Shown here: positions 2,643 through 14,070 of the stretch, in pieces
Layout of the letters: each line of letters begins with the position of its first letter
Position numbering within the stretch: the stretch's first letter is position 1
From: a virus
Taxonomy: Duplodnaviria > Caudoviricetes
Virus record (IMG/VR): IMGVR_UViG_3300025451_000030
Location: 1 to 36,907 of that record
Length of the DNA stretch: 36,907 nucleotides
Reading direction: 5' to 3' (one strand)
Position numbers and translations under genes: made by a program
Notes under the pieces: model-generated
The model's database searches: none
Told to the model about the DNA's origin: nothing
Seen by the model: only the letters and a program-made list of their open reading frames with translations

Positions 2643-3082
2643 ACCACACAGAACTGATTGCGCGGTTGTCCGCCATGTGGGCACAGCTCGACCCTGTGGA
2701 CGAGTGGCGGCCAGTTATCCGCGATGCAATCGACGCGCTGACCCCGCCCGCTGCAGGGGTGCCGGTTGAGCGAATGCTCAGGCCTTTGGTTTGGGCACGG
2801 AAGGACCAACTGCAACATGCCAGCACGCGAGGCGGACTGATGTGCGCCATGTACCCGAACACCGACCGGCGCGCAGACCTGCAGCCGCTGTATGACCAAG
2901 CTGCGCTAGGCGCCGCGCTGAACCTGTGGCCGCGCGACTGCCGTTTGTGCGCGAACTTCACGACGCAGGCAGGAGGGTGCGTGTCCGTGGTTCAGTGCGT
3001 GGACAGCATGCAATTCACGGCGACCACGCCGCGCCAGTATTGGGCGTCGGCGCCTAACGGCCAGGCCCAACGGCTGCCGTAG
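2639..3082 (+). CDS. Hypothetical protein, apparently chimeric (internal attC remnant; ends inside attC1)
   Basis: PVERMLRP is encoded by the attC-arm remnant; CxxC...CxxxxxC in the C-terminal part. Confidence 0.6.
   Translation: MNHTELIARLSAMWAQLDPVDEWRPVIRDAIDALTPPAAGVPVERMLRPLVWARKDQLQHASTRGGLMCAMYPNTDRRADLQPLYDQAALGAALNLWPRDCRLCANFTTQAGGCVSVVQCVDSMQFTATTPRQYWASAPNGQAQRLP
2762..2783 (-). repeat. Degenerate half attC remnant inside ORF 2639-3082
   Basis: CCGGTTGAGCGAATGCTCAGGC matches the family-A right arm CCGGTTGAGCGAATGGTTAGGC at 20/22 positions; no left arm found. Confidence 0.65.
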
Positions 3083-3108
3083 GCAGTCCGTTGCAGCCGT
3101 TGTTGGGC
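3052..3108 (-). repeat. attC-like site 1 (57 bp)
   Basis: GCCTAAC...CAACGGCTGCC-GTA-GGCAGTCCGTTG...GTTGGGC hairpin. Confidence 0.8.
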
Positions 3109-3132
3109 GTTGGTTGCTGACGCTGAACTTTA

Positions 3133-3184
3133 CATTGTGGGCAGTACGAAAACACTAGACAAAGCGCATTTGTGGCAGTACATT
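3133..3184 (+). promoter_or_regulatory. Sigma70-like promoter with direct-repeat operator, copy 1
   Basis: TAGACA(3156-3161)-17 bp-TACATT(3179-3184); CATT(n4)GCAGTAC repeated at 3133 and 3167; AT-rich island. Confidence 0.7.
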
Positions 3185-3227
3185 AATACCACTGCAGCAA
3201 GACGCCGCAGCAACCCAGGAGAGCAAC

Positions 3228-3503
3228 ATGACCGCTACCAAGATCCAAATCGGCATCGACACCAGCATTGACACCACCGAAGACGGCTACGACGGCGGCG
3301 ACGCGGTGATGATCGAATCGCACAACGGCACCGTTTGCATCACTGGCCCGTTTGAGGGCTGGATGGGCTACCAAACGCTGGCTGACCTGCCGATTGAGCA
3401 GGCCGATGAAGCCGACGCCCTGGCCCGCAAGATTGCGGCCGACCCCGTTGCCGAACTCACGGCGCTGGGCTATGACTTGGCCGGCTGGTTCAAGCCGCTG
3501 TGA
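3228..3503 (+). CDS. Cassette gene, acidic hypothetical protein
   Basis: AGGAGA RBS; GTGA overlap with the RHH gene. Confidence 0.75.
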   Translation: MTATKIQIGIDTSIDTTEDGYDGGDAVMIESHNGTVCITGPFEGWMGYQTLADLPIEQADEADALARKIAADPVAELTALGYDLAGWFKPL

Positions 3504-3682
3504 ACCAAGCTCCGGGAAAGGCCAAGCCGGGGCGCAAGCCCCTGGCCGATGGCGATGGCAAGACCGCCCGTGTGCAACTGAAGCTGACGCCGGCCGCGAA
3601 AGCCGATTGGCTGGCGAAAGCCGCCGCTGCCGGTTTGACGCTGCAAGCCTGGGTGGAGTTGCGGTGCAGCGGGAAGCGGTGA
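3500..3682 (+). CDS. Ribbon-helix-helix-like DNA-binding protein, copy 1
   Basis: GRKP basic arm, RVQLKLT strand and two helices (AAAAGLTLQAWV); 56/60 identical to 9267-9449. Confidence 0.7.
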   Translation: MNQAPGKAKPGRKPLADGDGKTARVQLKLTPAAKADWLAKAAAAGLTLQAWVELRCSGKR

Positions 3683-3683
3683 C

Positions 3684-3784
3684 GCCCAACGTTGCCAATG
3701 AGGCGGGGCAAACGGCGCTGCCGCTGCCGGCTACACCCACAACCAGACCCGCCGTTTGACCTCGCCTCGATTGGCGGGTTAGGC
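3684..3784 (-). repeat. attC-like site 2 (101 bp, family B)
   Basis: GCCCAACGTTGCCAATGAGGCG...CGCCTCGATTGGCGGGTTAGGC; near copy at 7891-7989. Confidence 0.85.
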
Positions 3785-3807
3785 CCTGGTGAACGTAGAG
3801 GGAACAA

Positions 3808-4140
3808 ATGAACCGCATGGAGCAACTGCTGGCGTTCTGCGATTGGGAGCGGAAGCACAACCCGCACCCGGAAGGCAAGCCGCATGTGGCGGAGTGGGCT
3901 GCTGCTGAGATTGAACGGCTGAACGGAGAAGTTGCGCTGTTGCGCGCCACGATGGAAGGCGCCACCTACCAACTGAGCAAGGCGCGCATTTGGGGCGGCA
4001 TGGAGTGGCATTACAACCCGTTGCACCCAATGCACTACAGGCCGGCGCTTGATCGTCTGCGCGAAGTGCTGGACGGGCCTAACGCTGTAGCTCACCGGAC
4101 CCTGGAGGCGGAACGCCGCAAGGGGTCCGGTGCAGCGTAG
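3808..4140 (+). CDS. Cassette gene, hypothetical (AAAEIERL coiled-coil motif); reads through most of attC3
   Basis: GAGGG RBS; stop lies inside attC3. Confidence 0.7.
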   Translation: MNRMEQLLAFCDWERKHNPHPEGKPHVAEWAAAEIERLNGEVALLRATMEGATYQLSKARIWGGMEWHYNPLHPMHYRPALDRLREVLDGPNAVAHRTLEAERRKGSGAA

Positions 4141-4148
4141 TGTTAGCG
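4077..4148 (-). repeat. attC-like site 3 (72 bp)
   Basis: GCCTAACGCTGTAGCTCACCGGACCC...GGGGTCCGGTGCAGCGTAGTGTTAGCG. Confidence 0.8.
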
Positions 4149-4307
4149 GGCCGGTGGCTTAGCGCGCAGCAGCACCGCACGCGCCCACTCTAGGCCATGC
4201 TCATCGATCTTTGCCCACACCGCTGGAGGCATGCGGATAGACCGCTGCACCAGGCGCTTGGCTTCCGGGATGGGTGGGCGCCCGCCCTTGTTCTTTGGCT
4301 GTTCCAT
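4143..4307 (-). CDS. Small RHH/antitoxin-like regulator, probably leaderless
   Basis: MEQPKNKGGRPP...VQRSIRMPPAVWAKI; TATACT 6 nt upstream of the ATG; stop TAA lies in the attC3 core. Confidence 0.65.
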   Translation of the reverse strand: MEQPKNKGGRPPIPEAKRLVQRSIRMPPAVWAKIDEHGLEWARAVLLRAKPPAR

Positions 4308-4313
4308 GCGGGC

Positions 4314-4365
4314 AGTATACGTGATGCACAAACCGCTTGCGCTTGCTTTGTTTGTGTGATTCAAT
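4314..4365. promoter_or_regulatory. Divergent promoter region
   Basis: Minus strand: -10 TATACT (4314-4319). Plus strand: TTGCGC-17 bp-TTCAAT with extended TG. Confidence 0.45.
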
Positions 4366-4399
4366 AACACCCATCGACACACCAACCGGAGCAAGCAAC

Positions 4400-4603
4400 A
4401 TGCAAACCACCCACCTGCAAAACATTGGCAAAGTAGCCGCGAAGCCCGCCGAACAGATCAAGGCCGGCGACGTGCTGGTTTGGAACTTCGGCAGCACCAG
4501 CGAAGTGCTGGCTGTTGAGCGCACCGCCAAGACTGTTGTGGTGAAGCTGTCGGGCGGCTACAGCCGTCGCTTTGGCGCCTCCCGCCTGGTGGCGGTGCAA
4601 TGA
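4400..4603 (+). CDS. Cassette gene, small beta-rich (SH3-like) protein
   Basis: GGAG RBS; KPAEQIKAGDVLVWNFG. Confidence 0.7.
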   Translation: MQTTHLQNIGKVAAKPAEQIKAGDVLVWNFGSTSEVLAVERTAKTVVVKLSGGYSRRFGASRLVAVQ

Positions 4604-4818
4604 AGGCGCACCTGGTGAAGATTCAGCGGGTAGCGACCGCTGCCCGCGAATACGACGCGGTGACGGTGTATGTAGGTGATCTGCGCCTGCGCTGCGATGC
4701 TATTGACGACCGAACGATCAGGCTGGCACGAAGGCTGGCAGAGGATTGCGGTGCGACGTTCATGTACGACGAACACAACGCCGAGCGAGTGCGGGCGGCT
4801 TGCGCGATTGCCGGCTAA
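4600..4818 (+). CDS. Cassette gene, hypothetical
   Basis: ATGA overlap; stop TAA is in the attC4 core. Confidence 0.65.
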   Translation: MKAHLVKIQRVATAAREYDAVTVYVGDLRLRCDAIDDRTIRLARRLAEDCGATFMYDEHNAERVRAACAIAG

Positions 4819-4886
4819 CGTTGGAGCTAAGGCGCCGACGTAGGGCCGCAGGCCCGTAGGAGGTCGCCTTGAGCGACCAGTTAGGC
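4813..4886 (-). repeat. attC-like site 4 (74 bp)
   Basis: GGCTAACGTTGGAGCTAAGGCG...CGCCTTGAGCGACCAGTTAGGC. Confidence 0.85.
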
Positions 4887-4906
4887 ATCAACGTGGAGAA
4901 ACAAGC

Positions 4907-5233
4907 ATGGAAGAGTGGGAAGAAGTCGATATACCGACACACCGGCTGAAAGATGCGAAGTGGGTTGCCACCGTGGCCGAGATTCGCAACAACGCCACGG
5001 GCGTGGTTCGCGAGTACCAGGACAACTCCATCATGGAAGACGGCGCGCCCGAGCCGAGCTCTTTCATGTGGGAAGACGGCAACTACGCCTGCGACTGCAA
5101 CCGCAAACTGTTTTTTGCTAGAGCGGCTGGCGAGGATGAGGATTGGGAAAGCGAATGCAGCGATGGCCTCTACTCCGTTCGCGTGCGGAACAAGAAAAGT
5201 GGCCGCGTGTTCTACAGCGAATTTGATGCCTAA
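4907..5233 (+). CDS. Cassette gene, hypothetical (WEDGNYACDCNR motif)
   Basis: GGAG RBS; stop TAA is in the attC5 core. Confidence 0.8.
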   Translation: MEEWEEVDIPTHRLKDAKWVATVAEIRNNATGVVREYQDNSIMEDGAPEPSSFMWEDGNYACDCNRKLFFARAAGEDEDWESECSDGLYSVRVRNKKSGRVFYSEFDA

Positions 5234-5296
5234 CGTGGCCGGTAACCGGCCTGGCCCGGCTTGCCGGGACAGGTCCGGTTGACCCGCCAGTTAGCC
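5228..5296 (-). repeat. attC-like site 5 (69 bp, family E)
   Basis: GCCTAACGTGGCCGGTAACCGG...CCGGTTGACCCGCCAGTTAGCC; unpaired G and T fall on the plus strand. Confidence 0.85.
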
Positions 5297-5339
5297 GGCA
5301 CTGGTGAAACGCCGGCACCTGCCTGAAAGGGCTGATACC

Positions 5340-5702
5340 TTGAACCAAGAGCAGATTGCCCGAGTGGCACACGAAGTGAACCGCGCCTATTGCCAGGCGC
5401 TGGGCGACCACAGCCAGCCAGCATGGGAAGACGCGCCGCAGTGGCAGCGCGACAGCGCCATGCTGGGCGTGAAGCTGCACACCGAAAACCCCGGCGCCAG
5501 CCCTTCCGCCAGCCATGAAAGCTGGATGGCGCAGAAGGTGGCCGAAGGCTGGGTCTACGGCCCCGAGAAGAAGCCAGAGCTGAAGCAGCACCACTGCATC
5601 GTGCCGTTTGACGCGCTGCCGGTGGCGCAGCAGGCGAAGGACTACATATTTCGCGGCGTGGTGCATGCCCTGGCGCACGCGCCGGCCACAGTTGCCGCAT
5701 AG
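5340..5702 (+). CDS. Cassette gene, RyR-domain phage protein
   Basis: IARVAHEVNRAYC...HESWMAQKVAEGWVYGPEK...HHCIVPFDALP...KD fits the RyR repeat signature; TTG start after GAAAGGG (GTG 5304 is an alternative). Confidence 0.8.
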   Translation: MNQEQIARVAHEVNRAYCQALGDHSQPAWEDAPQWQRDSAMLGVKLHTENPGASPSASHESWMAQKVAEGWVYGPEKKPELKQHHCIVPFDALPVAQQAKDYIFRGVVHALAHAPATVAA

Positions 5703-5737
5703 GTGCGCAGATGCCGGGCATGCAGGTATTGGTGTCC

Positions 5738-5837
5738 GGCTAACGTTCGAGCTAAGCAGGAGACAACGGCGTGACCATGCTGGACGAAGCCACAGAAGCG
5801 AGCGCCGTTGGCTCTCTGCTTGAGCGAGGAGTTATGC
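5738..5837 (-). repeat. attC-like site 6 (100 bp, family C); contains the RBS and GTG start of the downstream gene
   Basis: GGCTAACGTTCGAGCTAAGCAGGAGACAACGGC-GTG...GCCGTTGGCTCTCTGCTTGAGCGAGGAGTTATGC. Confidence 0.85.
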
Positions 5838-6631
5838 GCCCGGTGGAGTGCTTACGGACCGTGGCGGCCCTCTATGTTGAGCCGAAGGGCTGCTATGTGG
5901 GCGTGCCGGGTGTTGATGCTTGGGACGAAGCCCGCGATGCCCGCACCTACAACGGCCCGCACCCGGTGGTAGCGCACCCGCCCTGCCAGCGATGGGGCAG
6001 GTTCTGGCACGGCAGCACACGCAAACCGCATCAGTACAAGCTGGGCGACGATGGCGGGTGTTTTGCTGCTGCCCTGGCCGCGCTGCGCCTGAATGGCGGC
6101 GCGCTTGAGCACCCGATGGACTCGCATGCGTGGAAGTATTTCAGGCTGAAGAAGCCGCCGCGCAAAGGTGGGTGGGTTGAGGCCGCGCCAGGCTTGTGGA
6201 CATGCTGCGTGTACCAGGGCCACTACGGGCACCTTGCCGGCAAAGGAACATGGCTGCTTGTGGCTGGCGTGCCAAAGCGCCTGCTTCCCGAACTGCGCTG
6301 GGGCAAGACACCGCAGCGGCTGCACCCTCGCGCCGTGGAGTTGCACGGCTACGAGAAAGCGCGGCGCATTGGAATGATGGCGATGGTGGGCGGCAATGAC
6401 AAAACTGCGATTCGCAACGGCACGCCGCCTGAGTTCCGAGACTTGCTGATTGAGATTGCGCGCAGCGCAGTGAACCCGGTGGAGCAAGGTGCCGCCGCGC
6501 TGGCCCTGTTGAAGCGCATCCGCTACCACGCGCAGCGGCACGCGCTGCCGCGAGACTGGCTGACGGCAGCAGACGAGGTTTTAGGCACTTGGCATGCGGT
6601 GAAACTCACCCATTCCGAGATAGGCGCATAA
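5771..6631 (+). CDS. Cassette gene, DNA cytosine methyltransferase-like phage protein
   Basis: VVAHPPCQRW (motif IV PC-like) and LEHP (motif VI ENV-like); first ~22 codons lie in attC6; stop is in the attC7 core. Confidence 0.6.
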   Translation: MTMLDEATEASAVGSLLERGVMRPVECLRTVAALYVEPKGCYVGVPGVDAWDEARDARTYNGPHPVVAHPPCQRWGRFWHGSTRKPHQYKLGDDGGCFAAALAALRLNGGALEHPMDSHAWKYFRLKKPPRKGGWVEAAPGLWTCCVYQGHYGHLAGKGTWLLVAGVPKRLLPELRWGKTPQRLHPRAVELHGYEKARRIGMMAMVGGNDKTAIRNGTPPEFRDLLIEIARSAVNPVEQGAAALALLKRIRYHAQRHALPRDWLTAADEVLGTWHAVKLTHSEIGA

Positions 6632-6725
6632 CGCCAGGTTAAGCGGGAGACAACAGCCGTGACCAAGTATGAAGACGCGCAAGTGGTGGCCGCTGTTGGC
6701 TCTCCGCTTGAACCGACAGTTAGCC
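6626..6725 (-). repeat. attC-like site 7 (100 bp, family C); contains the RBS and GTG start of the downstream gene
   Basis: GCATAACGCCAGGTTAAGCGGGAGACAACAGCC-GTG...GCTGTTGGCTCTCCGCTTGAACCGACAGTTAGCC. Confidence 0.85.
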
Positions 6726-7489
6726 GTCATGCCGCGCCGCGCGTGATAGCGCAGTTTTCCTGCGGCGCTGCCTCGGCGGTGGCTACCAAGATGGCGCTGG
6801 CCCAGTACAAGGGCGCAGAGGTGGTGATTGCCAATGCGTTTTTGGTGGAAGAGGATGAAGACAACCGCCGCTTCTTGGCCGACTGCGAAGACTGGTTCGG
6901 TCAGCGCGCCCTGCAACTGCGGGATGAGAAGTACGGGGCCAGCGCCGACGAGGTGTGGCGGCGCAAGCGGTTCATGAAGGGGCGCAAGGGTGCGCCGTGC
7001 TCTGGCGAACTGAAGCGCAAGGTGCTGGACAAGGTGAAACGCCCCGACGATGTGCTGATATTTGGCTTCACCGCCGAAGAAGCAGACCGCTTCGATGACT
7101 TCCAAGAGCGCAACCCGCAACTGAAAGCCACTGCGCCGCTGGTGGAGAACGGGATTGGGAAGGCCGACTGTCTTGCGATGGTGCAGCGGGCCAGCATCAA
7201 GCTGCCGCTAGCCTACCGCCAGGGCTACAGCAACGCGAACTGCACCGGCTGCCCCAAGGGCGGCGAGGGCTACTGGAACCACGTTCGCAAGGTTCACCCG
7301 CTGGTGTTCCGTGCGCGCCTGGAGCGGCAGGAATCCATCGGCCCAGGCGCGTACTTCTTCCGCGACCGCGACACCGAAGAACGCTTCGGGTTGAAGGACT
7401 TGGACCCGAAGGCGGGCCGCCACGATGAACCGATGCCAGCGTGCAGTTTCTTCTGCGAGCTGGGCGAACAAGAGTACGCCGCCTCATGA
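6659..7489 (+). CDS. Cassette gene, PAPS-reductase-like (adenine nucleotide alpha-hydrolase) protein with Cys cluster
   Basis: FSCGAASAVA PP-loop variant, GAPC, NANCTGCPKGGEGYW, terminal CSFFC; first ~22 codons lie in attC7. Confidence 0.7.
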   Translation: MTKYEDAQVVAAVGSPLEPTVSRHAAPRVIAQFSCGAASAVATKMALAQYKGAEVVIANAFLVEEDEDNRRFLADCEDWFGQRALQLRDEKYGASADEVWRRKRFMKGRKGAPCSGELKRKVLDKVKRPDDVLIFGFTAEEADRFDDFQERNPQLKATAPLVENGIGKADCLAMVQRASIKLPLAYRQGYSNANCTGCPKGGEGYWNHVRKVHPLVFRARLERQESIGPGAYFFRDRDTEERFGLKDLDPKAGRHDEPMPACSFFCELGEQEYAAS

Positions 7490-7490
7490 C

Positions 7491-7590
7491 GGCTAACGTT
7501 TGAGCTAACCGGAAAACCCGGCAGCTACAGAAGATGATAGGCGCCACGGTGCCGCCTGCCGGGGTTTTCCGGTTGAGCGAATGGTTAGGC
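7491..7590 (-). repeat. attC-like site 8 (100 bp, family A)
   Basis: GGCTAACGTTTGAGCTAACCGGAAAACCCGGCAGC...GCCTGCCGGGGTTTTCCGGTTGAGCGAATGGTTAGGC. Confidence 0.9.
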
Positions 7591-7618
7591 CACGCATTGG
7601 TGGCAAGTGAGGAACGAC

Positions 7619-7882
7619 ATGAGAAGCACACTGTTGGCTGCAACCGCGTTGTCGGTGATGGCTGGTATGGGAGCGATTTCGCAGTCAATGCCTGCACCGC
7701 GCAAGGACAGCAACCGCGACTACAGGGACGCAGACATTGAGCGCGCCTTCGCTCGAAACGAGCGCCCGGCACCAGGCCCCGAAGAAGTGAAGCGTGCGGC
7801 GGTGCGCGCCGAGATTGCAGCGCACAACGCCGAAGTCGAGCGCCGCAAGGCCGAGAAGCGCGCTCGCAGGCTGACCCGCTGA
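7619..7882 (+). CDS. Cassette gene, hypothetical (hydrophobic N-terminus, basic coiled-coil C-terminus)
   Basis: GAGGA RBS; fills the cassette. Confidence 0.65.
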   Translation: MRSTLLAATALSVMAGMGAISQSMPAPRKDSNRDYRDADIERAFARNERPAPGPEEVKRAAVRAEIAAHNAEVERRKAEKRARRLTR

Positions 7883-7890
7883 ATTGCGGG

Positions 7891-7989
7891 GCCTAACGTT
7901 GCCGATGAGGCGGGGCAAACGGCCGCGCCGTGATGGCAGATGAACAAACCGCCCCGCCGTTTGACCTCGCCTCGATTGGCGGGTTAGGC
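7891..7989 (-). repeat. attC-like site 9 (99 bp, family B)
   Basis: Arms nearly identical to site 2, different loop. Confidence 0.85.
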
Positions 7990-8016
7990 GTGGCGAACGA
8001 AGCGAAAGGACATGGA

Positions 8017-8226
8017 ATGACTGAATGGACCAAGCCGGAATACAGGGTTGTGCGCGACAACTACAACGGCTATGAGGTGCAGATTCGGCGCTGGTGGCAT
8101 TGGCCGTTTTGGTGGCAAGCGGCTGGGAGCAACACCCACTCAAGCGTGGAAGCCGCAGAGACGTTTGCGGAGGGGCACGCACGCGCACGCGGCCCCGTGA
8201 AGCATCTCGGGAGGCTGGGCGCCTAA
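8017..8226 (+). CDS. Cassette gene, Trp-rich hypothetical (alternative in-frame start inside attC9 at 7930/7933)
   Basis: AAAGGA RBS; stop is in the attC10 core. Confidence 0.7.
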   Translation: MTEWTKPEYRVVRDNYNGYEVQIRRWWHWPFWWQAAGSNTHSSVEAAETFAEGHARARGPVKHLGRLGA

Positions 8227-8320
8227 CGTTTGAGCTAACCGGAAAACCCGGCAGCTACAGAAGATGGAAGGCACCACGGTGCCGCCTGCCGGGGTTTTCC
8301 GGTTGAGCGAATGGTTAGGC
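8221..8320 (-). repeat. attC-like site 10 (100 bp, family A)
   Basis: Minus strand reads R'' GCCTAAC, 5-bp CATTC, L'' GCTCAACC ... L' GGTTAGC, 6-bp TCAAAC, R' GTTAGGC, the canonical attC layout. Confidence 0.9.
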
Positions 8321-8342
8321 CTGGTGGCCGAAGGGGAAGACG

Positions 8343-8516
8343 ATGGAATTTGCTATGGGGATTTTGATTGGGTTTCTGCTGATGATGCTCTTGATTGGCA
8401 TTGCCGTCTGGGGAATGCACATGGGCCTTGAACTTGCTGTGGACGGCACAAAGAAGAAAGGCCACTTCTGCGCCTATGGCAAAAAGTGGAAAGTTGTTGA
8501 GACACCCGAGGCCTAG
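8343..8516 (+). CDS. Cassette gene, 57-aa membrane protein (not in ORF track)
   Basis: MEFAMGILIGFLLMMLLIGIAVWGMH...ETPEA*; GAAGGGGAAG RBS; lower GC. Confidence 0.7.
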   Translation: MEFAMGILIGFLLMMLLIGIAVWGMHMGLELAVDGTKKKGHFCAYGKKWKVVETPEA

Positions 8517-8518
8517 GG

Positions 8519-8618
8519 GCCTAACGTTTGAGCTAACCGGAAAACCCGGCAGCTACCGAATATGCAAGGCGCCACGGTGCCGCCTGCCGGGGTTTTCCGG
8601 TTGAGCGAATGGTTAGGC
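8519..8618 (-). repeat. attC-like site 11 (100 bp, family A)
   Basis: Arms identical to site 10, loop variant. Confidence 0.9.
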
Positions 8619-8641
8619 CTGGCGGCCGAAGGGGAAGAACG

Positions 8642-8830
8642 ATGACAAGCTGGATTCTGGTACTCACGATTTTGACCAGCGGCCACGGCGCAGCACTGAC
8701 AAACGTGCCCGGCTTCACGGCGCAGCAAGACTGCGCGGCAGCAGCAGCCGAGTGGCTCCGCGCAATGAACGCCCAGCCCGGAGGCTTCCGCTACTACAGC
8801 GCAATCTGTCTGCCGCAGAAGAGGGCCTAA
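8642..8830 (+). CDS. Cassette gene, small secreted/membrane protein with Cys pair
   Basis: MTSWILVLTIL...GFTAQQDCAAAA...AICLP; stop is in the attC12 core. Confidence 0.7.
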   Translation: MTSWILVLTILTSGHGAALTNVPGFTAQQDCAAAAAEWLRAMNAQPGGFRYYSAICLPQKRA

Positions 8831-8893
8831 CGTTGCCGGTAACCGGATTGACCCGGCTTGCCGGGGCAATTCCGGTTGAGCGGCGTGTTGGGC
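8825..8893 (-). repeat. attC-like site 12 (69 bp, family E)
   Basis: GCCTAACGTTGCCGGTAACCGG...CCCGGCTTGCCGGG...CCGGTTGAGCGGCGTGTTGGGC; same loop as site 5. Confidence 0.85.
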
Positions 8894-8918
8894 GTTGTTG
8901 CCGGAGCGCGTGTCTTTA

Positions 8919-8970
8919 CATTGGTGGCAGTACGAAAACACTAGACAAGGCGCATTGTTGGCAGTACATT
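8919..8970 (+). promoter_or_regulatory. Sigma70-like promoter with direct-repeat operator, copy 2
   Basis: TAGACA(8942-8947)-17 bp-TACATT(8965-8970); same GGCAGTAC repeats as 3133-3184. Confidence 0.7.
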
Positions 8971-9015
8971 AACACCACTGCAGCAAGTCGCCGCAGCAAC
9001 CCACAGGAGAGCAAC

Positions 9016-9270
9016 ATGACAGAAGTTCAAGCCCTGCAAGCCGAAGCCACCCGCCAAGATGCGATTGCTCAGGCCCTGCGCGCCGATGTGCAAACCGCAG
9101 AAGCTGCCGCCGCCGCGATCACGGACCAAGATTCGACCGAAGCAGGCATTGCCTGGGCGCGTGCGGGCGGATTGCGCCACGCAATGGACGAAGCCATCGA
9201 AGCCATGCGCAAGGCTCACCGCGATGCAGCTGACATCGAAGACCCGGACGGCCTGCGGGCGGAAGCATGA
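9016..9270 (+). CDS. Cassette gene, Ala-rich helical hypothetical
   Basis: AGGAGA RBS; ATGA overlap with the RHH gene. Confidence 0.7.
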   Translation: MTEVQALQAEATRQDAIAQALRADVQTAEAAAAAITDQDSTEAGIAWARAGGLRHAMDEAIEAMRKAHRDAADIEDPDGLRAEA

Positions 9271-9449
9271 ACCAAGCCCCGGAGAAAGCCAAGCCGGGGC
9301 GCAAGCCCCTGGCCGATGGCGAGGGCAAGACGGCCCGCGTGCAACTGAAGCTCACGCCGGCCGACAAAGCCGATTGGCTGGCAAAGGCAGCCGCTGCCGG
9401 TTTGACGCTGCAGGCGTGGGTAGAGAAGCGGTGCAGCGGTAAGCGATGA
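9267..9449 (+). CDS. Ribbon-helix-helix-like DNA-binding protein, copy 2
   Basis: Paralog of 3500-3682. Confidence 0.7.
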   Translation: MNQAPEKAKPGRKPLADGEGKTARVQLKLTPADKADWLAKAAAAGLTLQAWVEKRCSGKR

Positions 9450-9450
9450 C

Positions 9451-9469
9451 GCCCAACTAGTCGATATGC
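9451..9469 (-). other. attI-like simple site (lone core plus degenerate L box) terminating array 1
   Basis: Minus strand GCATATC-GACTA-GTTGGGC = 7-bp degenerate L box, 5-bp spacer, GTTRRRY, with no attC hairpin. Same geometry as the attI1 simple site. Confidence 0.55.
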
Positions 9470-9849
9470 CAACTTTCCAAACTCCGAACCGATGGCGCCG
9501 CTACAACGCCACACCAGGCGCACACCAGCGCCGGCAGCGTGCGCGGGAAGCCGCCAGCATTGCAGGCCCCGCGCCGGCCTACCCGCCGACCGCCCCACTG
9601 CATGGCGACTGGCTGGGCGGCTGCATCAACGGACAGACCGTGATCGTGCGGCTGATGCGCGATCCGTCGCACAGGTCAGACCAATGGGCCGCCGAGATCG
9701 ACGGCGGAACGGTGGCCGATGCTGCTGGCTTGACGCGGCTGTGGGCGCTGCTGCATCCGCGCTGGGGCAAGGCGCCGAGCAAGCGGGCATTGGCGACGAT
9801 GCAAGAACGCTGGACCGACCGAGACGAACACGACGCCGCAATGGCGTGA
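9466..9849 (+). CDS. Hypothetical phage protein; its start overlaps the attI-like site
   Basis: ORF fills the gap to the next RBS; no clear RBS of its own. Confidence 0.5.
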   Translation: MPTFQTPNRWRRYNATPGAHQRRQRAREAASIAGPAPAYPPTAPLHGDWLGGCINGQTVIVRLMRDPSHRSDQWAAEIDGGTVADAAGLTRLWALLHPRWGKAPSKRALATMQERWTDRDEHDAAMA

Positions 9850-9856
9850 GGACACC

Positions 9857-10444
9857 ATGAGCAACACTGACGAACTTTGCGCCGCTGCACAACAGGCCCT
9901 GGTGGCAATGGAGAAGTACCCGGTCACGGTGAATCACTGGAAAGCGGTGCTGCTGCCTGCCGCTGATGCACTGCGCGCCGCCCTGGCGCAGCAGCCCGCC
10001 GCCCCTGACCGCTGGAATGAGGGGTTCAAGCACGGCCAGTGGCTGGCGAAGCACTCCGCCCCTGTTGTGGAGCGCGCAGACTCTGCAACGCCTGTTGTGG
10101 AGCGTAGCGCCGGGAATGTGAGCGACAACGCCGCCCCTGTGGCGCCTGCCCGCTGGTACTGCGTGACCAACTACGGAGGCGCCACGCTGTGCACTGGCCG
10201 CGACGATGCCGCCGAGGTGGCGGCCGAGCAGGACATCGCCATTCCGCGCCATGGGCCGCACCGGGCCGTGATGCTGGCAGAAGTGCCGCCTGCGCGAGTG
10301 CCGCTGACCGAGGCGGAGATTGCGTCAATGCAGCGCAAAGCAAACACAACCGGCGTTCAGTTTTTACAGTCGTCAACCGTGCGATGGATCGTTCGCGCCA
10401 TCGAAGCCGCCCACGGCATCACGGCGCAAGGAGAACTGAAGTGA
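9857..10444 (+). CDS. Mosaic hypothetical phage protein (ALRAALAQ... PLTEAEI... RAIEAAHGI motifs)
   Basis: GAGGA RBS; motifs typical of betaproteobacterial phage early-region proteins; internal PVVER duplication. Confidence 0.7.
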   Translation: MSNTDELCAAAQQALVAMEKYPVTVNHWKAVLLPAADALRAALAQQPAAPDRWNEGFKHGQWLAKHSAPVVERADSATPVVERSAGNVSDNAAPVAPARWYCVTNYGGATLCTGRDDAAEVAAEQDIAIPRHGPHRAVMLAEVPPARVPLTEAEIASMQRKANTTGVQFLQSSTVRWIVRAIEAAHGITAQGELK

Positions 10445-10728
10445 CCGACGCACTGCACATTGCTGACGGCTACTCAGCCCGCCCCTACGGTGACGGCTAC
10501 ATCATCCACCACGAAAGCGGAGGCGCCTGGGCGGCTGATCTGGCGATGGTTGCCGCCGTGCTGGAGATTGCCCGCCTGCGCGCAGCCGACGACGCCCACC
10601 GTGCCGCATTTGCAGCGATCTACACCGCGCTGCAACCGGCTGACCCCGACCGCGCCACATGGCCGGCTGAGATTGCCCGCCTGCGCGCCATGCTGGCCGC
10701 CGTCATTGTTGGGAACCGGACATCATGA
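10441..10728 (+). CDS. Hypothetical phage protein with duplicated EIARLRA
   Basis: AGGAG RBS, GTGA overlap. Confidence 0.6.
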   Translation: MTDALHIADGYSARPYGDGYIIHHESGGAWAADLAMVAAVLEIARLRAADDAHRAAFAAIYTALQPADPDRATWPAEIARLRAMLAAVIVGNRTS

Positions 10729-10865
10729 GCACCCTGCTGGAGGTTCTGGGCCTGGTGCTGCTGATCCTGCTGGTGGTCGCCCTGTGGTTCGTGTTCCGAG
10801 GCGACCCGAGCCTGATCGATCTGTGGCACCGGGCCGCGATGCAGGCCGCTGGAGGTGTGCGGTGA
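10725..10865 (+). CDS. 46-aa membrane protein (not in ORF track)
   Basis: MSTLLEVLGLVLLILLVVALWFVF...; ATGA and GTGA overlaps. Confidence 0.6.
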   Translation: MSTLLEVLGLVLLILLVVALWFVFRGDPSLIDLWHRAAMQAAGGVR

Positions 10866-11089
10866 AGGTCAGGATGATCAAGCGGCGCCACGACCGGCGC
10901 ACCACCTTCAAGGCGCTGCTGTGGGCCGGCATGAACGACGAAATGCGCTGGCACACGCTGGAGTACGACGGCGATGACCCATGGGACGACGACATGCCCG
11001 GCGACGCATGCCTGCACTGCCACGGCGACGGCATGGACCCGGACTGCGACTACCTGTTGCAGTGCCCGGACTGCGGCGGGAGTTGGTGA
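10862..11089 (+). CDS. Small protein with DnaJ-like CxxCxGxG zinc finger
   Basis: CLHCHGDG...CPDCGG; GGAGG RBS. Confidence 0.6.
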   Translation: MKVRMIKRRHDRRTTFKALLWAGMNDEMRWHTLEYDGDDPWDDDMPGDACLHCHGDGMDPDCDYLLQCPDCGGSW

Positions 11090-11307
11090 TGGCGGCAGTA
11101 ACGCTGCATTTCCGAGCCGACCGCCTGCACAAGACCTGCGGCGTGTGCGGGGCGGATCTGAACCGGCGCGTCAGCCGCTGGTGGCTGACGAACTGCTGGA
11201 CGGCCGACCCGAAGGAATACCGCGCGCAGCAGAGCTGCCACCCGGCAGAGACTGTGCGGCCCTGCGGAGTACTGGACCGCAGCAAGACGCCCAACCGACG
11301 GAGATAA
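11089..11307 (+). CDS. Small Cys-rich protein; ends inside attC13
   Basis: TGATG coupling; CGVCG. Confidence 0.55.
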   Translation: MAAVTLHFRADRLHKTCGVCGADLNRRVSRWWLTNCWTADPKEYRAQQSCHPAETVRPCGVLDRSKTPNRRR

Positions 11308-11359
11308 GCCGCCGGCCGCCGGCCGCCTGCGGGCGGTCGGCTTGATCGACCTGTTCGGC
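11289..11359 (-). repeat. attC-like site 13 (71 bp)
   Basis: GCCCAACCGACGGAGATAAGCCG...CGGCTTGATCGACCTGTTCGGC. Confidence 0.75.
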
Positions 11360-11386
11360 CTCTGGCGCCGAAGCGAAAGGACTGTG

Positions 11387-11578
11387 ATGAGCCTGAACTA
11401 CCGAGAGACTGACGACGAGTGCCCCGGTTGCGGAGCGACTGCCCGCGGCAGGCGAGACAACAAGCCGAACTCTCCGCAGGGGTTGAGCGAGTGCCCGCAA
11501 TGCGGCGCAGAGAAATGCTGCATGTGTGACATGGGCGATGACGTGGAATGCGCCTCGTGCGACCTAGGCGACGAGTAG
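11387..11578 (+). CDS. Cassette gene, Cys-rich zinc-finger protein
   Basis: CPGC, CPQC, CCMC, CASC; AAAGGA RBS. Confidence 0.7.
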   Translation: MSLNYRETDDECPGCGATARGRRDNKPNSPQGLSECPQCGAEKCCMCDMGDDVECASCDLGDE

Positions 11579-11579
11579 G

Positions 11580-11631
11580 GCCTAACGTCATGCTAGCCGG
11601 CGCGTAGCGTCCGGCTGAGCTGGGGTTGGGC
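11580..11631 (-). repeat. attC-like site 14 (52 bp, very short)
   Basis: GCCTAACGTCATGCTAGCCGGCGC-GTA-GCGTCCGGCTGAGCTGGGGTTGGGC. Confidence 0.75.
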
Positions 11632-11656
11632 GGCTGTGCGACGAAGCGAAGGACGA

Positions 11657-11881
11657 ATGATGAGCATGGACTACATCCGCCGCACCTACGGTGTGCCGGC
11701 CAAACGCGGGATGACCGTCACCATCTGCGGCGACGGAACGCGCTTCCAGGCGCGCATCGTCGGGTCTCGCGGGCAGTACCTGCGGCTATGGATTCCAGGC
11801 GGCAAGCGCTCGCACCTGTACCACCCGACCGATTCGCTGGAGTACCCGGCCGCAGCAAAGGGCAAGACGCCCAACGGCTGA
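11657..11881 (+). CDS. Cassette gene, small phage protein (YIRRTYGVPAKRG...YHPT family)
   Basis: AAGGA RBS; ends PNG* inside attC15. Confidence 0.75.
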   Translation: MMSMDYIRRTYGVPAKRGMTVTICGDGTRFQARIVGSRGQYLRLWIPGGKRSHLYHPTDSLEYPAAAKGKTPNG

Positions 11882-11935
11882 ACTCACCGGACGGCCCGGC
11901 CTGCCGGGCAGGTCCGGTGCAGTGACGTGTTGGGC
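11869..11935 (-). repeat. attC-like site 15 (67 bp, family D arms)
   Basis: GCCCAACGGCTGAACTCACCGG...CCGGTGCAGTGACGTGTTGGGC. Confidence 0.85.
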
Positions 11936-11964
11936 GGCTGGTTGATTGACGAACAGGAACAAGC

Positions 11965-12207
11965 ATGCTGAAACCTGAACACCTAGACGGCGCACTGCGG
12001 CAAGAACAGATGCAGGAGCGGGCGGATTGGAGAGCCGCCAACGAACCCGGCAGCGCGTCAGCTTCTCCATGGGAGCGCGGGCGCCTGGATGCGCTTGCCG
12101 GCAAAGCGGCGCCCGACCTTGTGCGCCCGGACGGCGCGTGGTCGGCACGGCTGTACGCGGCGGGGTGGGATCGCGGGGCGGAGCGGCGCAAGACGACCAA
12201 CGTTTGA
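11965..12207 (+). CDS. Cassette gene, hypothetical (WERGRLDA...AAGWDRG, Rmf/CrpP-like pattern)
   Basis: AGGA RBS; ends TNV* inside attC16. Confidence 0.6.
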   Translation: MLKPEHLDGALRQEQMQERADWRAANEPGSASASPWERGRLDALAGKAAPDLVRPDGAWSARLYAAGWDRGAERRKTTNV

Positions 12208-12293
12208 GCTAACCGGACCGGCCAGGCGCCGGGATGGTGACAGATGAACAGGACGGACCGCCTGGCTGGGTCCGGTTGAGCGAATGGTTAGGC
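12195..12293 (-). repeat. attC-like site 16 (99 bp; family-A outer arms, family-D inner stem)
   Basis: GACCAACGTTTGAGCTAACCGGACCGGCCAGGCG...CGCCTGGCTGGGTCCGGTTGAGCGAATGGTTAGGC. Confidence 0.88.
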
Positions 12294-12550
12294 CCGGCTC
12301 AGAAGCGCGCCAAGAATTGACCGCTGCCCTGGACAAAAGCGGCAGTGTGGTGCTGATAGACGTGGATGGCGAAATCCTGTTTTACGCGGCAGACGGCAAG
12401 ATGAAGGTGCAGCGGCTGGGCCAGGAGTGCGAGGGTTGCATTGCTGCGAATATGAAGCTGGCCGATGCTGTGGCGCAGGCATGGAACGCGAAACTCAAGC
12501 GCGCCGCTGACCCAACGAACAGCCGCCCGCGCTGTGGTCTTGGGGCCTAA
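12284..12550 (+). CDS. Cassette gene, hypothetical; ATG lies in the attC16 arm
   Basis: Fills the cassette; stop is in the attC17 core; start uncertain. Confidence 0.55.
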   Translation: MVRPGSEARQELTAALDKSGSVVLIDVDGEILFYAADGKMKVQRLGQECEGCIAANMKLADAVAQAWNAKLKRAADPTNSRPRCGLGA

Positions 12551-12645
12551 CGCTTGAAGTGAGGCGCCTTTGACGGCGCGAAGAAAGGACGACGATGAAC
12601 CAACATGACACGCCGGCAAAGGTCGCCTCGACTGATGGGTTAGGC
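12545..12645 (-). repeat. attC-like site 17 (101 bp); RBS and ATG of the downstream gene lie in its loop
   Basis: GCCTAACGCTTGAAGTGAGGCGCCTTTGACGGCG...AAAGGACGACGATG...CGCCGGCAAAGGTCGCCTCGACTGATGGGTTAGGC. Confidence 0.85.
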
Positions 12646-12963
12646 CCGCTGGTTGCTGACGCGCTGACAGCCGCAGACGAATACGCGGAAGCAGCCGGCC
12701 ACGCCGAGTGCTGGACGGGCACGCGCGCCAGCTACAACCAGCACCTAGCCGATGCGCGCACCAAGGCGCGCCAGGCCATTGATGCGGCCGTGGCCGCAGA
12801 GCGCGGGCGGTGGGAAGCCTTGCTTGAAGATCGCGCCCAGATTCATGGCGAGTCGTCGCGCATCTATGCGCGCCTAGCGAGCGCTGTGCGCGCCGGGGCC
12901 GGTGACATTGTTTTGGGGCAACTGCTTCGCGCCGAGGTGCAGGGAAGAGGGCCTAACGGCTGA
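12595..12963 (+). CDS. Cassette gene, hypothetical; starts in the attC17 loop and ends in attC18
   Basis: AAAGGA RBS plus ATG inside the hairpin loop. Confidence 0.7.
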   Translation: MNQHDTPAKVASTDGLGPLVADALTAADEYAEAAGHAECWTGTRASYNQHLADARTKARQAIDAAVAAERGRWEALLEDRAQIHGESSRIYARLASAVRAGAGDIVLGQLLRAEVQGRGPNG

Positions 12964-13048
12964 ACTCACCGGACCGGCCAGGCGCCGGGGTGGTGACAAA
13001 CGCGGACCCGCCCCGCCTGGCTGGGTCCGGTGCAGTGATGGGTTAGGC
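12951..13048 (-). repeat. attC-like site 18 (98 bp, family D)
   Basis: GCCTAACGGCTGAACTCACCGGACCGGCCAGGCG...CGCCTGGCTGGGTCCGGTGCAGTGATGGGTTAGGC. Confidence 0.88.
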
Positions 13049-13071
13049 CTGGTGGCCGAAGGGGAAGAACG

Positions 13072-13263
13072 ATGGACATGCGACAGACGCTGCCGGAACT
13101 GTGGCGCAGTCACGATGGCTTGTGGTGGATTGGGCAGGCCGTGGCGTTGATGCTGGCCCTGTCGCTTCTGTTCAACGGCTACGGCGGCCCCGTTGCTGCG
13201 GCTGTTGGCTACGCGCTGGCAGTGCTGGTTGACATCCGCGAGGCGGTGTCGAAGCGGGCCTAA
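13072..13263 (+). CDS. Cassette gene, 2-TM membrane protein
   Basis: Two hydrophobic segments; stop is in the attC19 core. Confidence 0.7.
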   Translation: MDMRQTLPELWRSHDGLWWIGQAVALMLALSLLFNGYGGPVAAAVGYALAVLVDIREAVSKRA

Positions 13264-13321
13264 CGGCTGAACTCACCGGACCGGCCGGCCTGCCGGCTGG
13301 GTCCGGTGCAGTGGGTTAGGC
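13258..13321 (-). repeat. attC-like site 19 (64 bp, family D; 3-bp spacer deletion)
   Basis: Right arm CCGGTGCAGTGGGTTAGGC versus CCGGTGCAGTGATGGGTTAGGC in site 18. Confidence 0.8.
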
Positions 13322-13344
13322 GTGGTGAACGAAGGGGAAGAACG

Positions 13345-13548
13345 ATGCAATGCAAGAACTGCGGCAAGGCCGCCGACCAGCACAACGCCAAAACTCGGGC
13401 ATGCCCCGGCGGCCGGAAGCACCGGACGCACGGTTACCCGTGGTTCCACCAGACGCAGGTTTTTGAAGCGCACAAGCAGTGCCCCAACAAGCGTGGCGGT
13501 GTGTGCGGCAAGGCTGGCCCGTGCTTGAGCCCAGCATGTGGTGGCTGA
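13345..13548 (+). CDS. Cassette gene, Cys/His-rich small protein
   Basis: CKNCG..H..CP..; GAAGGGGAAG RBS. Confidence 0.65.
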   Translation: MQCKNCGKAADQHNAKTRACPGGRKHRTHGYPWFHQTQVFEAHKQCPNKRGGVCGKAGPCLSPACGG

Positions 13549-13549
13549 C

Positions 13550-13648
13550 GCCTAACGTTTGAGCTAACCGGAAAACCCGGCAGCTACCGAATTGAGAAGC
13601 GCTGCGGCGCGGCCTGCCGGGGTTTTCCGGTTGAGCGAATGGTTAGGG
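13550..13648 (-). repeat. attC-like site 20 (99 bp, family A)
   Basis: Arms as in sites 8/10/11; ends GTTAGGG. Confidence 0.88.
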
Positions 13649-13667
13649 CTGTTGTTGGAGAAACGTG

Positions 13668-13766
13668 ATGAACAAGCGCTTCGTGCGCTGGGCCGGCCTC
13701 AAACACCCGGCCACGCTGGGCGGCGATGTCGTCGAGCGCTGGCTAGGGCCCCGATCTATTGCCTGA
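13668..13766 (+). CDS. 32-aa ORF in the last, possibly truncated cassette
   Basis: GGAG RBS; MNKRFVRWAGLKHP...SIA*. Confidence 0.35.
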   Translation: MNKRFVRWAGLKHPATLGGDVVERWLGPRSIA

Positions 13767-13797
13767 CAACACCTTGCAGCGGCACCACCCTGCCCGC

Positions 13798-14070
13798 TCA
13801 TTCAGGCTCGGCCTGCAGCCCTGCTGGCACGCCGTGCCGCCACCTGGCTGCAGACAGGGTCAACCACACCAGCACCGCAAGCACCAGCACCGTCTTGCCA
13901 GCCATCGCCGGCAGCACCAGGCTGAAGCTGAGCCCCGCGAACATCACCAGGTGCTGCATGCGCACTGGCGCCGGCGTGGCCCGCGTCATCTTGGCAGCGC
14001 GGCAAATGATGGAGAACATGGCCATGATGGTGGCCACAGCCTGGGTGATCAACAACAGGTCAGCATTCAT
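13798..14070 (-). CDS. Membrane protein, putative holin-associated
   Basis: 3 hydrophobic segments; ATGA overlap with the upstream holin-like gene. Confidence 0.65.
   Translation of the reverse strand: MNADLLLITQAVATIMAMFSIICRAAKMTRATPAPVRMQHLVMFAGLSFSLVLPAMAGKTVLVLAVLVWLTLSAARWRHGVPAGLQAEPE

Follow-up and report, generated by a model that had tools for sequence, protein, structure and literature searches.

The closest described systems are the phage CALINs of Qi et al. (2023; PMC9892861), which are alike in being attC clusters in phages without intI and in carrying methyltransferase cargo. Seventeen such CALINs (minimum two sites) were reported, with TJE1 and PH101 in the typical arrangement, and IntI1 was found to recombine five of the six phage sites tested, acting on the attC bottom strands (PMC9892861). 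CALINs in phages are, as such, known from the literature. Burkholderiales carry sedentary chromosomal integrons (for example in Pseudaquabacterium pictum W35, Roseateles aquae APW11, and Ottowia sp.) with an IntI of the TIGR02249 type; these are alike in having near-identical attC outer boxes and the same geometry.

We analyzed a stretch of 36,907 nucleotides (36.9 kb) from a freshwater phage, here termed the window, in which about 20 small genes of a 10-kb accessory (early) region are organized as cassettes bounded by attC-type folding sites. A covariance model, R1, was built from 21 bacterial attC sites (alignment A2), leaving out the site type used as search query. At E<0.001 it identified exactly the 20 sites of 52–101 bp that a preliminary description had counted, 12 in array 1 and eight in array 2. 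All were located on the minus strand between 3052 and 13648 and scored 22.8–62.4 bits, while the rest of the window gave no further R1 match and the best plus-strand score was 16.2 bits. A stricter geometry finder recovered 15 sites in 3001–13800 compared to a mean of 0.07 (maximum 1) across 100 dinucleotide shuffles. The Rfam search gave no match. The sites contain the R'', L'', L', and R' boxes and the extrahelical base of attC. The layout R''-5-L''(8)...L'(7)-6-R' proposed beforehand was found in 16 of the 20 sites, with 6–7 of 7 L-box pairs, while the spacer was a few bases off in the remaining four (3052, 6626, 11289, and 13258); that the layout lies on the strand opposite to the genes had been left unstated. 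With a model from 21 bacterial sites and a contig rated 50% complete, the locus is thus a CALIN, i.e., an attC cluster without a nearby integron integrase. The sites and array borders are as follows:

3052..3108, minus: attC-type site 1, short spacer (34.1 bits and fold)
3684..3784, minus: attC-type site 2 (44.0 bits)
4077..4148, minus: attC-type site 3 (51.7 bits)
4813..4886, minus: attC-type site 4 (57.1 bits)
5228..5296, minus: attC-type site 5 (45.9 bits)
5738..5837, minus: attC-type site 6, with the next gene's SD-like motif and its start codon in the loop (49.9 bits)
6626..6725, minus: attC-type site 7, spacer one base short, start codon 6659 within (22.8 bits and fold)
7491..7590, minus: attC-type site 8 (55.3 bits; agrees with a bacterial array site at 44 of the outer 46 nt)
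7891..7989, minus: attC-type site 9 (46.6 bits)
8221..8320, minus: attC-type site 10 (59.2 bits; outer bases 45/46 identical to a bacterial array site)
8519..8618, minus: attC-type site 11 (59.2 bits; outer bases 45/46 identical to a bacterial array site)
8825..8893, minus: attC-type site 12, head of the cassette docked at the attI-like site (49.0 bits)
11096..11176, minus: degenerate attC-like remnant, a 21st candidate at the left end of array 2 (fold; no R1 match)
11289..11359, minus: attC-type site 13 (44.5 bits)
11580..11631, minus: attC-type site 14 (30.0 bits)
11869..11935, minus: attC-type site 15 (52.2 bits)
12195..12293, minus: attC-type site 16 (58.7 bits)
12545..12645, minus: attC-type site 17, its loop holding an SD-like motif and the ATG at 12595 (62.4 bits)
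12951..13048, minus: attC-type site 18 (58.0 bits)
13258..13321, minus: attC-type site 19, three bases short, these being present in two of four related runs (44.3 bits)
13550..13648, minus: attC-type site 20 (52.8 bits)
13761..13770, no strand assigned: right end of array 2 with an imperfect R-like box; neither an attI-like L box nor turnover was seen (sequence and relatives)

The cargo was only partly as first described. The RyR domain and the PAPS-reductase-like product were recovered by family searches, while the methyltransferase-like ORF matched phrog_12600 only, and the evidence for the zinc fingers consists of CxxC motifs visible in the sequence and phrog_5584. The product of 5771..6631 is methyltransferase-like by motif only. 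Two ribbon-helix-helix-like ORFs share 89% DNA identity, which stops at AAC.

3156..3184, plus: sigma-70-like promoter within cassette 1 (promoter scan; repeat D11)
3500..3682, plus: ribbon-helix-helix-like ORF, copy 1 (weak PF21983 match, below cut-off)
5340..5702, plus: cassette gene with RyR domain (PF02026)
5771..6631, plus: cassette gene, methyltransferase-like by motif (only phrog_12600, a family of unknown function, matched)
6659..7489, plus: cassette gene, PAPS-reductase-like (phrog_424)
8942..8970, plus: sigma-70-like promoter within the attI-proximal cassette (promoter scan; repeat D11)
9267..9449, plus: ribbon-helix-helix-like ORF, copy 2 (weak PF21983 match, below cut-off)

The genes run on the plus strand and the attC layout lies on the minus strand, and the cassettes are therefore inverted relative to those of bacterial integrons. 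Read on the coding strand, each unit consists of C plus hairpin, gene, and RYYYAA; the hairpin goes with the downstream gene. A longest-ORF test assigned nine window cassettes as inverted and five as canonical. Phage DNA rich in GC makes this test too noisy, and it was replaced by family matches and a codon model. The codon model, trained on genes of the window's own phage, called 12 of 12 window cassettes inverted. At platform loci (see below) it called 22 inverted, none canonical, and one not at all, and at viral loci 48, none, and three; the 132 bacterial segments gave nine inverted and 46 canonical calls, with 77 uncalled. Genes matched to families were inverted in 20 of 20 cases (65 phage segments), vs. 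18 canonical and three inverted in 64 bacterial segments. By both measures the phage cassette genes are not oriented toward their own attC, as integron cassette genes are.

Array 1 ends at an attI-like site, directly followed by a gene that takes the place of intI and that, together with the site, we term the platform:

9451..9469, minus: attI-like docking site with R box, 5-nt spacer, and L box, plus strand GCCCAAC TAGTC GATATGC (comparison with relatives)
9466..9849, plus: platform gene, 127 aa, no known family, ATG in the L box (locus comparison)

IntI crosses over between AA and C (AA/C), here between 9456 and 9457. Sixteen near-identical platform copies were found to bear 15 different upstream sequences or genes, diverging at AA/C. 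Identity was 100% from AAC onward and 7–53% beyond nine bases upstream. The AAC was in the same place at 35 of 36 platform loci, the 36th being a one-base offset error in the analysis. The same first-cassette end was found at two docking types (L025/L265 and L043/L270). This comparison suggests that 9451–9469 acts as an attI, a double-stranded pair of R and L boxes receiving cassettes. Speaking against this, GTT, which according to Bouvier (2009) is never present in known attI L boxes, was found within the L box in three platform loci (L025, L051, and L058). The cassette genes run toward the site, which departs from the integron arrangement with a Pc, and a simple sigma-70 scan, a weak test, found no minus-strand promoter nearby directed away from it. 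For the right end of array 2, searching gave no viral match and no recognizable attI; array 2 probably represents a second block that lacks its own working docking site. The preliminary description did not contain the inversion, the hairpin travelling with the downstream gene, the docking site, or the conserved neighboring gene.

Cassette mobility, proposed beforehand, was borne out by related phages, where cassettes were gained and reordered at AA/C junctions. Cassettes keep the borders given above when their neighbors change, and identical cassettes occupy different slots. L071 and L083 share a whole cassette (428 bp, 100% identity) and L002 and L070 a cassette block (1.1 kb, 96%), in both cases with other neighbors, while L264 and L265 share three blocks, 99.8–100% identical but reordered, with a different block docked in each. 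The borders lie at the G/TT (AA/C) crossover, as in integrons. Of five shared blocks, one stopped within a gene at a break in the alignment, and several recurrent joints at 9883–10985 were not at att sites. The joints 13074>8700 and 13068>13550 were rejected as artefacts of repeats outside the compared stretch.

The platform gene was previously unannotated. Its family keeps its position directly downstream of the attI-like site in three divergent subfamilies: the window type (36 loci), the L071 type, and L270. In the L071 type the AAC lies 33 nt before the ATG in 13 of 13 loci, and inverted sites were found upstream in 10, the other three having <160 nt upstream. Neither Pfam, PHROG, NCBIfam, nor PDB gave a sequence match. 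Two predicted models (mean pLDDT 76 and 84) have four strands followed by a helix; Foldseek gave no match at E<=0.001, and all Atlas leads were below its thresholds. No relative of the platform gene or of the 100-bp site was found in the cultured phages searched. A pattern-based scan of GTDB genomes found no platform, while a profile search gave 3/401 matches, two real and one false. L018 was rejected as a platform relative, being a chance pattern match.

As first described, the window has no integrase: PF00589 had no match in the contig. An integron integrase encoded elsewhere in the phage genome gained no support from relatives, as IntI (TIGR02249 over cut-off) was found in none of 45 related phage records, including eight at least 90% complete. 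PF00589 gave six matches in 33 records, which we interpret as ordinary integrases of phages. Up to 45 of 46 outer bases of window sites agree with bacterial array sites, a similarity partly built in since a 21-mer from the window had been used to find the bacterial loci. The same site type lies beside an IntI-motif gene in seven bacterial loci. Among 151 genomes related to one such bacterium of the likely host group, 85 had IntI over cut-off. The host probably belongs to the Rubrivivax/Aquabacterium/Sphaerotilus group of the Burkholderiales, and its IntI, supplied in trans as also proposed originally, would be the best-fitting enzyme.

We consider it about 70% probable that the early region consists of integron-type cassettes of reversed polarity, with array 1 ending at an attI-like site, excised and docked by host IntI in trans. 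Inverted attC-bounded cassettes, and a docking site with a different gene in each relative, indicate that the phages likely borrow the host integron enzyme and reshuffle a pool of their own. It is possible, though doubtful, that the 127-aa protein is a dedicated cofactor of the recombinase, which it would recruit, induce, or redirect, forming a two-part platform with attI. Its retention beside the site in three subfamilies fits this, as do wholly different downstream genes and third codon positions being the most variable in an alignment that includes the unrelated row L018. However, unrelated genes come after the R-box sites at which other phage arrays (L068, L077, L079, L080, L089, and L092) end, and the protein matched no sequence or fold in the searches given above; as its start codon overlaps with or directly adjoins the site, the linkage may be a historical one. 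That a phage-encoded Xer-like or other tyrosine recombinase is at work, deleted or absent from a contig that is 50% complete, is unlikely. One sequence, P0121, does fuse a platform domain to the catalytic half of a tyrosine recombinase, but it is a single sequence on a 1.1-kb contig that looks exceptional, and its recombinase half shares 67% identity with an ordinary phage integrase that has no attC in its vicinity. Furthermore, four of seven near-complete relatives lack any PF00589 match. The adjoining gene is no short tyrosine recombinase gene but encodes the stand-alone protein, and a recombinase remnant was rejected since the family stands alone in 32 clusters, mostly at 120–135 aa, with P0121 the single fusion.

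Several sites share 40–100 nt of near-identity and some contig joints fall inside hairpins, as expected if the hairpins were shared linkers (RNA processing or termination signals) between which genes swap by homologous recombination. Contig breaks at hairpins can stem from repeats and were therefore not counted as proof. We find shared linkers quite improbable: the docking site has only a 7-nt box in common yet a sharp border at AAC, shared cassettes stop at AAC before unrelated sites, and the asymmetry that is conserved corresponds to attC. That the arrays are inert leftovers of bacterial integron DNA taken up by the phage is hardly credible. Some sites are degenerate and array 2 lacks a clear docking site, but the cargo fits phage families, with only two weak (~29% identity) translated matches to fetched bacterial loci, the polarity is opposite to that of bacterial arrays, and 100%-identical cassettes in new slots speak for recent turnover; for array 1, the docking data and the shared, reordered cassettes already contradict this reading.

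We best read these sequences as an active phage cassette system that lacks an integrase and is likely driven by host IntI. The coding strand would be the recombinogenic bottom strand, folding when single-stranded; IntI would form circles by attC x attC and insert them by attC x attI. Incoming cassettes would be added to the early operon at its downstream end, with read-through or cassette-borne promoters, not a Pc, providing their expression. More speculatively, and with rather poor odds, temperate phages of integron-bearing Betaproteobacteria might own a mirror-image cassette pool, the phage attI and new small protein hijacking the host integrase to build accessory operons on demand. Reversed polarity would keep the pools functionally apart, phage genes being silent in the host integron and host defense cassettes silent in the phage, and hairpins with the gene's own ribosome site and start codon would represent a distinct way of building cassettes.

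Homologous or illegitimate recombination is the usual explanation for mosaicism in phage genomes. In the present phage, a 10-kb accessory region is organized by integron-type site-specific recombination with base-precise borders and recent turnover, and a new protein family occupies the intI position. Host integrase arrays store anti-phage genes, according to the available part of a recent report (bioRxiv 10.1101/2024.07.02.601686), and whether such an integrase also serves the phage becomes directly testable.

We found no paper on an inverted, attI-bearing phage cassette form. Compared to the CALINs of Qi et al. (2023; PMC9892861), with their minimum of two sites, the window has 20, and the available text of that study describes no systematic gene inversion, phage-specific attI with turnover, or platform gene. 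IntI can insert cassettes at non-att double-stranded sites, attG, as described in the available part of its report (bioRxiv 10.1101/2022.09.11.507474). Such insertion may explain the right end of array 2, whereas the 9451 site differs from attG as described there in being conserved across phages, having two boxes 5 nt apart, and being repeatedly reused. The Burkholderiales integrons have intI, canonical gene orientation, and bacterial cargo (GNAT, PDZ, TIR, and ParE); the phage arrays lack intI, their genes are inverted, and translation often starts inside the hairpin. The large pool of phage cassettes is inverted compared to the bacterial pool yet has nearly the same attC sites, which bears on the origin of cassettes.

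The 36.9 kb linear virus contig (G000) was rated 50% complete, and no match to the tyrosine recombinase family PF00589 was found in it. The minus strand from ~14 to 36 kb encodes HK97-type head, portal, terminase and long-tail proteins; small early genes occupy the plus strand between 0.5 and 13.8 kb. A second assembly (L032) was 99.99% identical to the window across 16.4 kb with unchanged cassette order, and both may originate from a common sampling site. The following features are referred to below or were noted in addition to the arrays:

2884-3058: 3' end of the gene preceding the first site, resembling a cassette gene end in contig L025 up to the AAC, which suggests an upstream gene fused to an older cassette
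4146-4307, minus strand: small ribbon-helix-helix-like ORF against the array direction, within unit 4077-4819 (L007 holds a similar unit)
9451-9469: attI-like docking site, array 1 terminus
9466-9849, plus strand: 127-aa platform gene
11096-13770: array 2
15885-17306, minus strand: 473-aa gene past the tail fibre, low GC (~55%), without family match
28806-30302, minus strand: neighbour of the major capsid gene; its match to polysaccharide deacetylase is weak and below cut-off

Sites of the attC type follow the spacing rule R''-5-L''(8)...L'(7)-6-R', which was checked on bacterial arrays adjoining integron integrase (IntI) genes. In a geometry search of the window this layout was nearly confined to the minus strand, and a strict finder returned 15 sites compared to 0.07 in shuffled sequence. 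A covariance model was built from 21 of 31 candidate bacterial attC sites; the other 10, excluded beforehand, came from four short phage-like contigs, apart from one false match and one site called on the wrong strand. It gave exactly 20 matches at E<0.001 (52-101 bp, minus strand only, within 3052-13648), the number of attC sites claimed in the preliminary description. Sixteen sites were regular and four had shifted spacers; a degenerate 21st lies at 11096. Site 13 (11308) has 7 extra bases relative to copies in all seven non-source sequencing runs, and site 19 (13311) is 3 bases short relative to copies in two of four runs.

Blocks common to relatives run from a hairpin to the RYYYAAC that follows. 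This was the case for a 428 bp block in L071 and L083 (100% identity), a 1.1 kb block in L002 and L070 (96% identity) and a pair within the window (3501-3690 and 9268-9457). Such a unit is what IntI chemistry predicts for the bottom strand, with the gene alone reversed. Single window cassettes were found, near-identical, as separate contigs in runs from four studies, although repeats could also break contigs there. Cassettes 3128-3690 and 8914-9457 carry the same sigma-70-like promoter with short repeated motifs and the same ribbon-helix-helix-like ORF, but their first genes are unrelated; in other runs this promoter is linked to the second ORF through other middles. Together, the promoter and ORF resemble an autoregulated unit in which one gene can be exchanged.

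In the docking site, five bases separate an R box from an inverted L-like box, and the platform ORF has its ATG within the latter. The AAC position was constant in 35 of 36 loci having the platform gene and upstream DNA, the 36th reflecting an analysis offset. Duplicates and copies of the window itself were omitted from the 36, as were two loci without upstream DNA, one with 11 bases, and the variant ends L031 and L059-L061. Upstream of sixteen near-identical platforms, 15 distinct sequences were present; identity was 100% from the AAC on and fell to background within ten bases upstream. The docking-site border lies at the AA|C junction where gene-content breakpoints had been proposed. Contigs from other runs start at 9455, one with 111 different letters upstream. 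Reordering between related phages, also anticipated, was found in L264 and L265, which have three blocks in common (99.8-100%) in changed order and differ in the docked block. Right after the L box (9472-9483), the first platform-gene codons hold a near-palindromic 12-base motif that is conserved among platform loci; in L060/L061 the palindrome is perfect. The motif may bind an accessory factor.

Searches with the platform protein gave 132 near-length homologues (32 clusters at 50% identity) and neither a family nor a fold match. A second subfamily, ~30% identical to the window protein as judged from member P0143 (profile E to 5e-12), has its gene after the docking site in 13/13 loci. A third form follows a window-type site in L270, a Burkholderiaceae-family genome contig; two inverted sites precede it there, and an excisionase-like gene and an integrase gene come after it. 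The sole recombinase fusion of the family (P0121) looks like a deletion product. Several phage arrays terminate beside unrelated genes, and the platform gene is therefore not necessarily required.

Array 2 was missing in the close relative L001 and showed no clear L box; in other runs it stayed connected to the flank on the lysis side. It may be a block that lacks a functional docking site. Recurrent mosaic joints among relatives (9883-10056, 10311-10423 and 10894-10985) lie away from att sites, in genes separating the two arrays.

The plus strand, on which the window cassette genes lie, corresponds to the attC bottom strand. Segments were called inverted, i.e., opposite to bacterial integron polarity, by a codon model in 12/12 cases in the window, 22/23 in platform loci and 48/51 in other viral loci, the remainder being without call; the latter two sets have three contigs in common. 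In bacterial loci the model called 46 segments canonical and 9 inverted, leaving 77 without call. By family matches, 20/20 were inverted among 65 phage segments. Among 64 bacterial segments, 18 were canonical, including two DUF1010 matches that overlap the site, and the 3 inverted ones were two ParE and one transposase fragment. According to two studies, bottom-strand choice serves to orient genes toward the cassette promoter Pc (Bouvier 2009, PMC2727003; Loot 2017, PMC5371416), and systematic phage inversion departs from this norm. PMC11551772 and bioRxiv 10.64898/2026.03.17.712381, searched for orientation, added nothing. An SD-like motif with an in-frame start lies inside the loop of 17/81 scored phage sites, all at least 90 nt, and the R-box TAA serves as stop codon of the upstream gene in 28/80 cases. 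Bacterial ~111-nt sites (L095, L096, L100, L123, L157) share a loop motif that reads as two ATGs on the bottom strand, which is also the strand of the start codons in phage sites. L093, L117 and L124, inverted cassettes on short contigs in bacterial genome bins, are possibly misbinned phage fragments.

Of 45 phage records, including 8 with a completeness of 90% or more, none scored above cut-off for the IntI family TIGR02249. PF00589 gave six matches in 33 records, by eye ordinary phage integrases, and 4/7 near-complete records were without a match. The commonest window site type is also found in multiple copies in bacterial arrays, most of them from Burkholderiales; at seven loci an IntI-motif gene accompanies it. 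Up to 45 of its outer 46 bases match bacterial sites, compared to 22-39 for the remaining window sites. IntI was above cut-off in 85/151 relatives of Pseudaquabacterium pictum, counting one unpublished genome (G517). IntI1 accepts phage attC bottom strands (Qi 2023), the only work on phage attC arrays found in a search of openly accessible literature. Given the lack of IntI in phage records, the similar bacterial sites near IntI and the use of phage attC by IntI1, host IntI acting in trans would be the simplest enzyme.

The data establish the structure of the sites, the inverted gene polarity, the borders of the units, and the repeated docking and reordering of cassettes. IntI would catalyze the recombination, with cassettes passing through circles; expression would come from read-through and two promoter-bearing cassettes, and the polarity may insulate the phage pool from the host pool. 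In contrast to the integron, the phage system has neither intI nor a Pc promoter and for this reason falls outside the integron family. The arrays are real and active-looking, and can be regarded as a variant of integron cassette systems.
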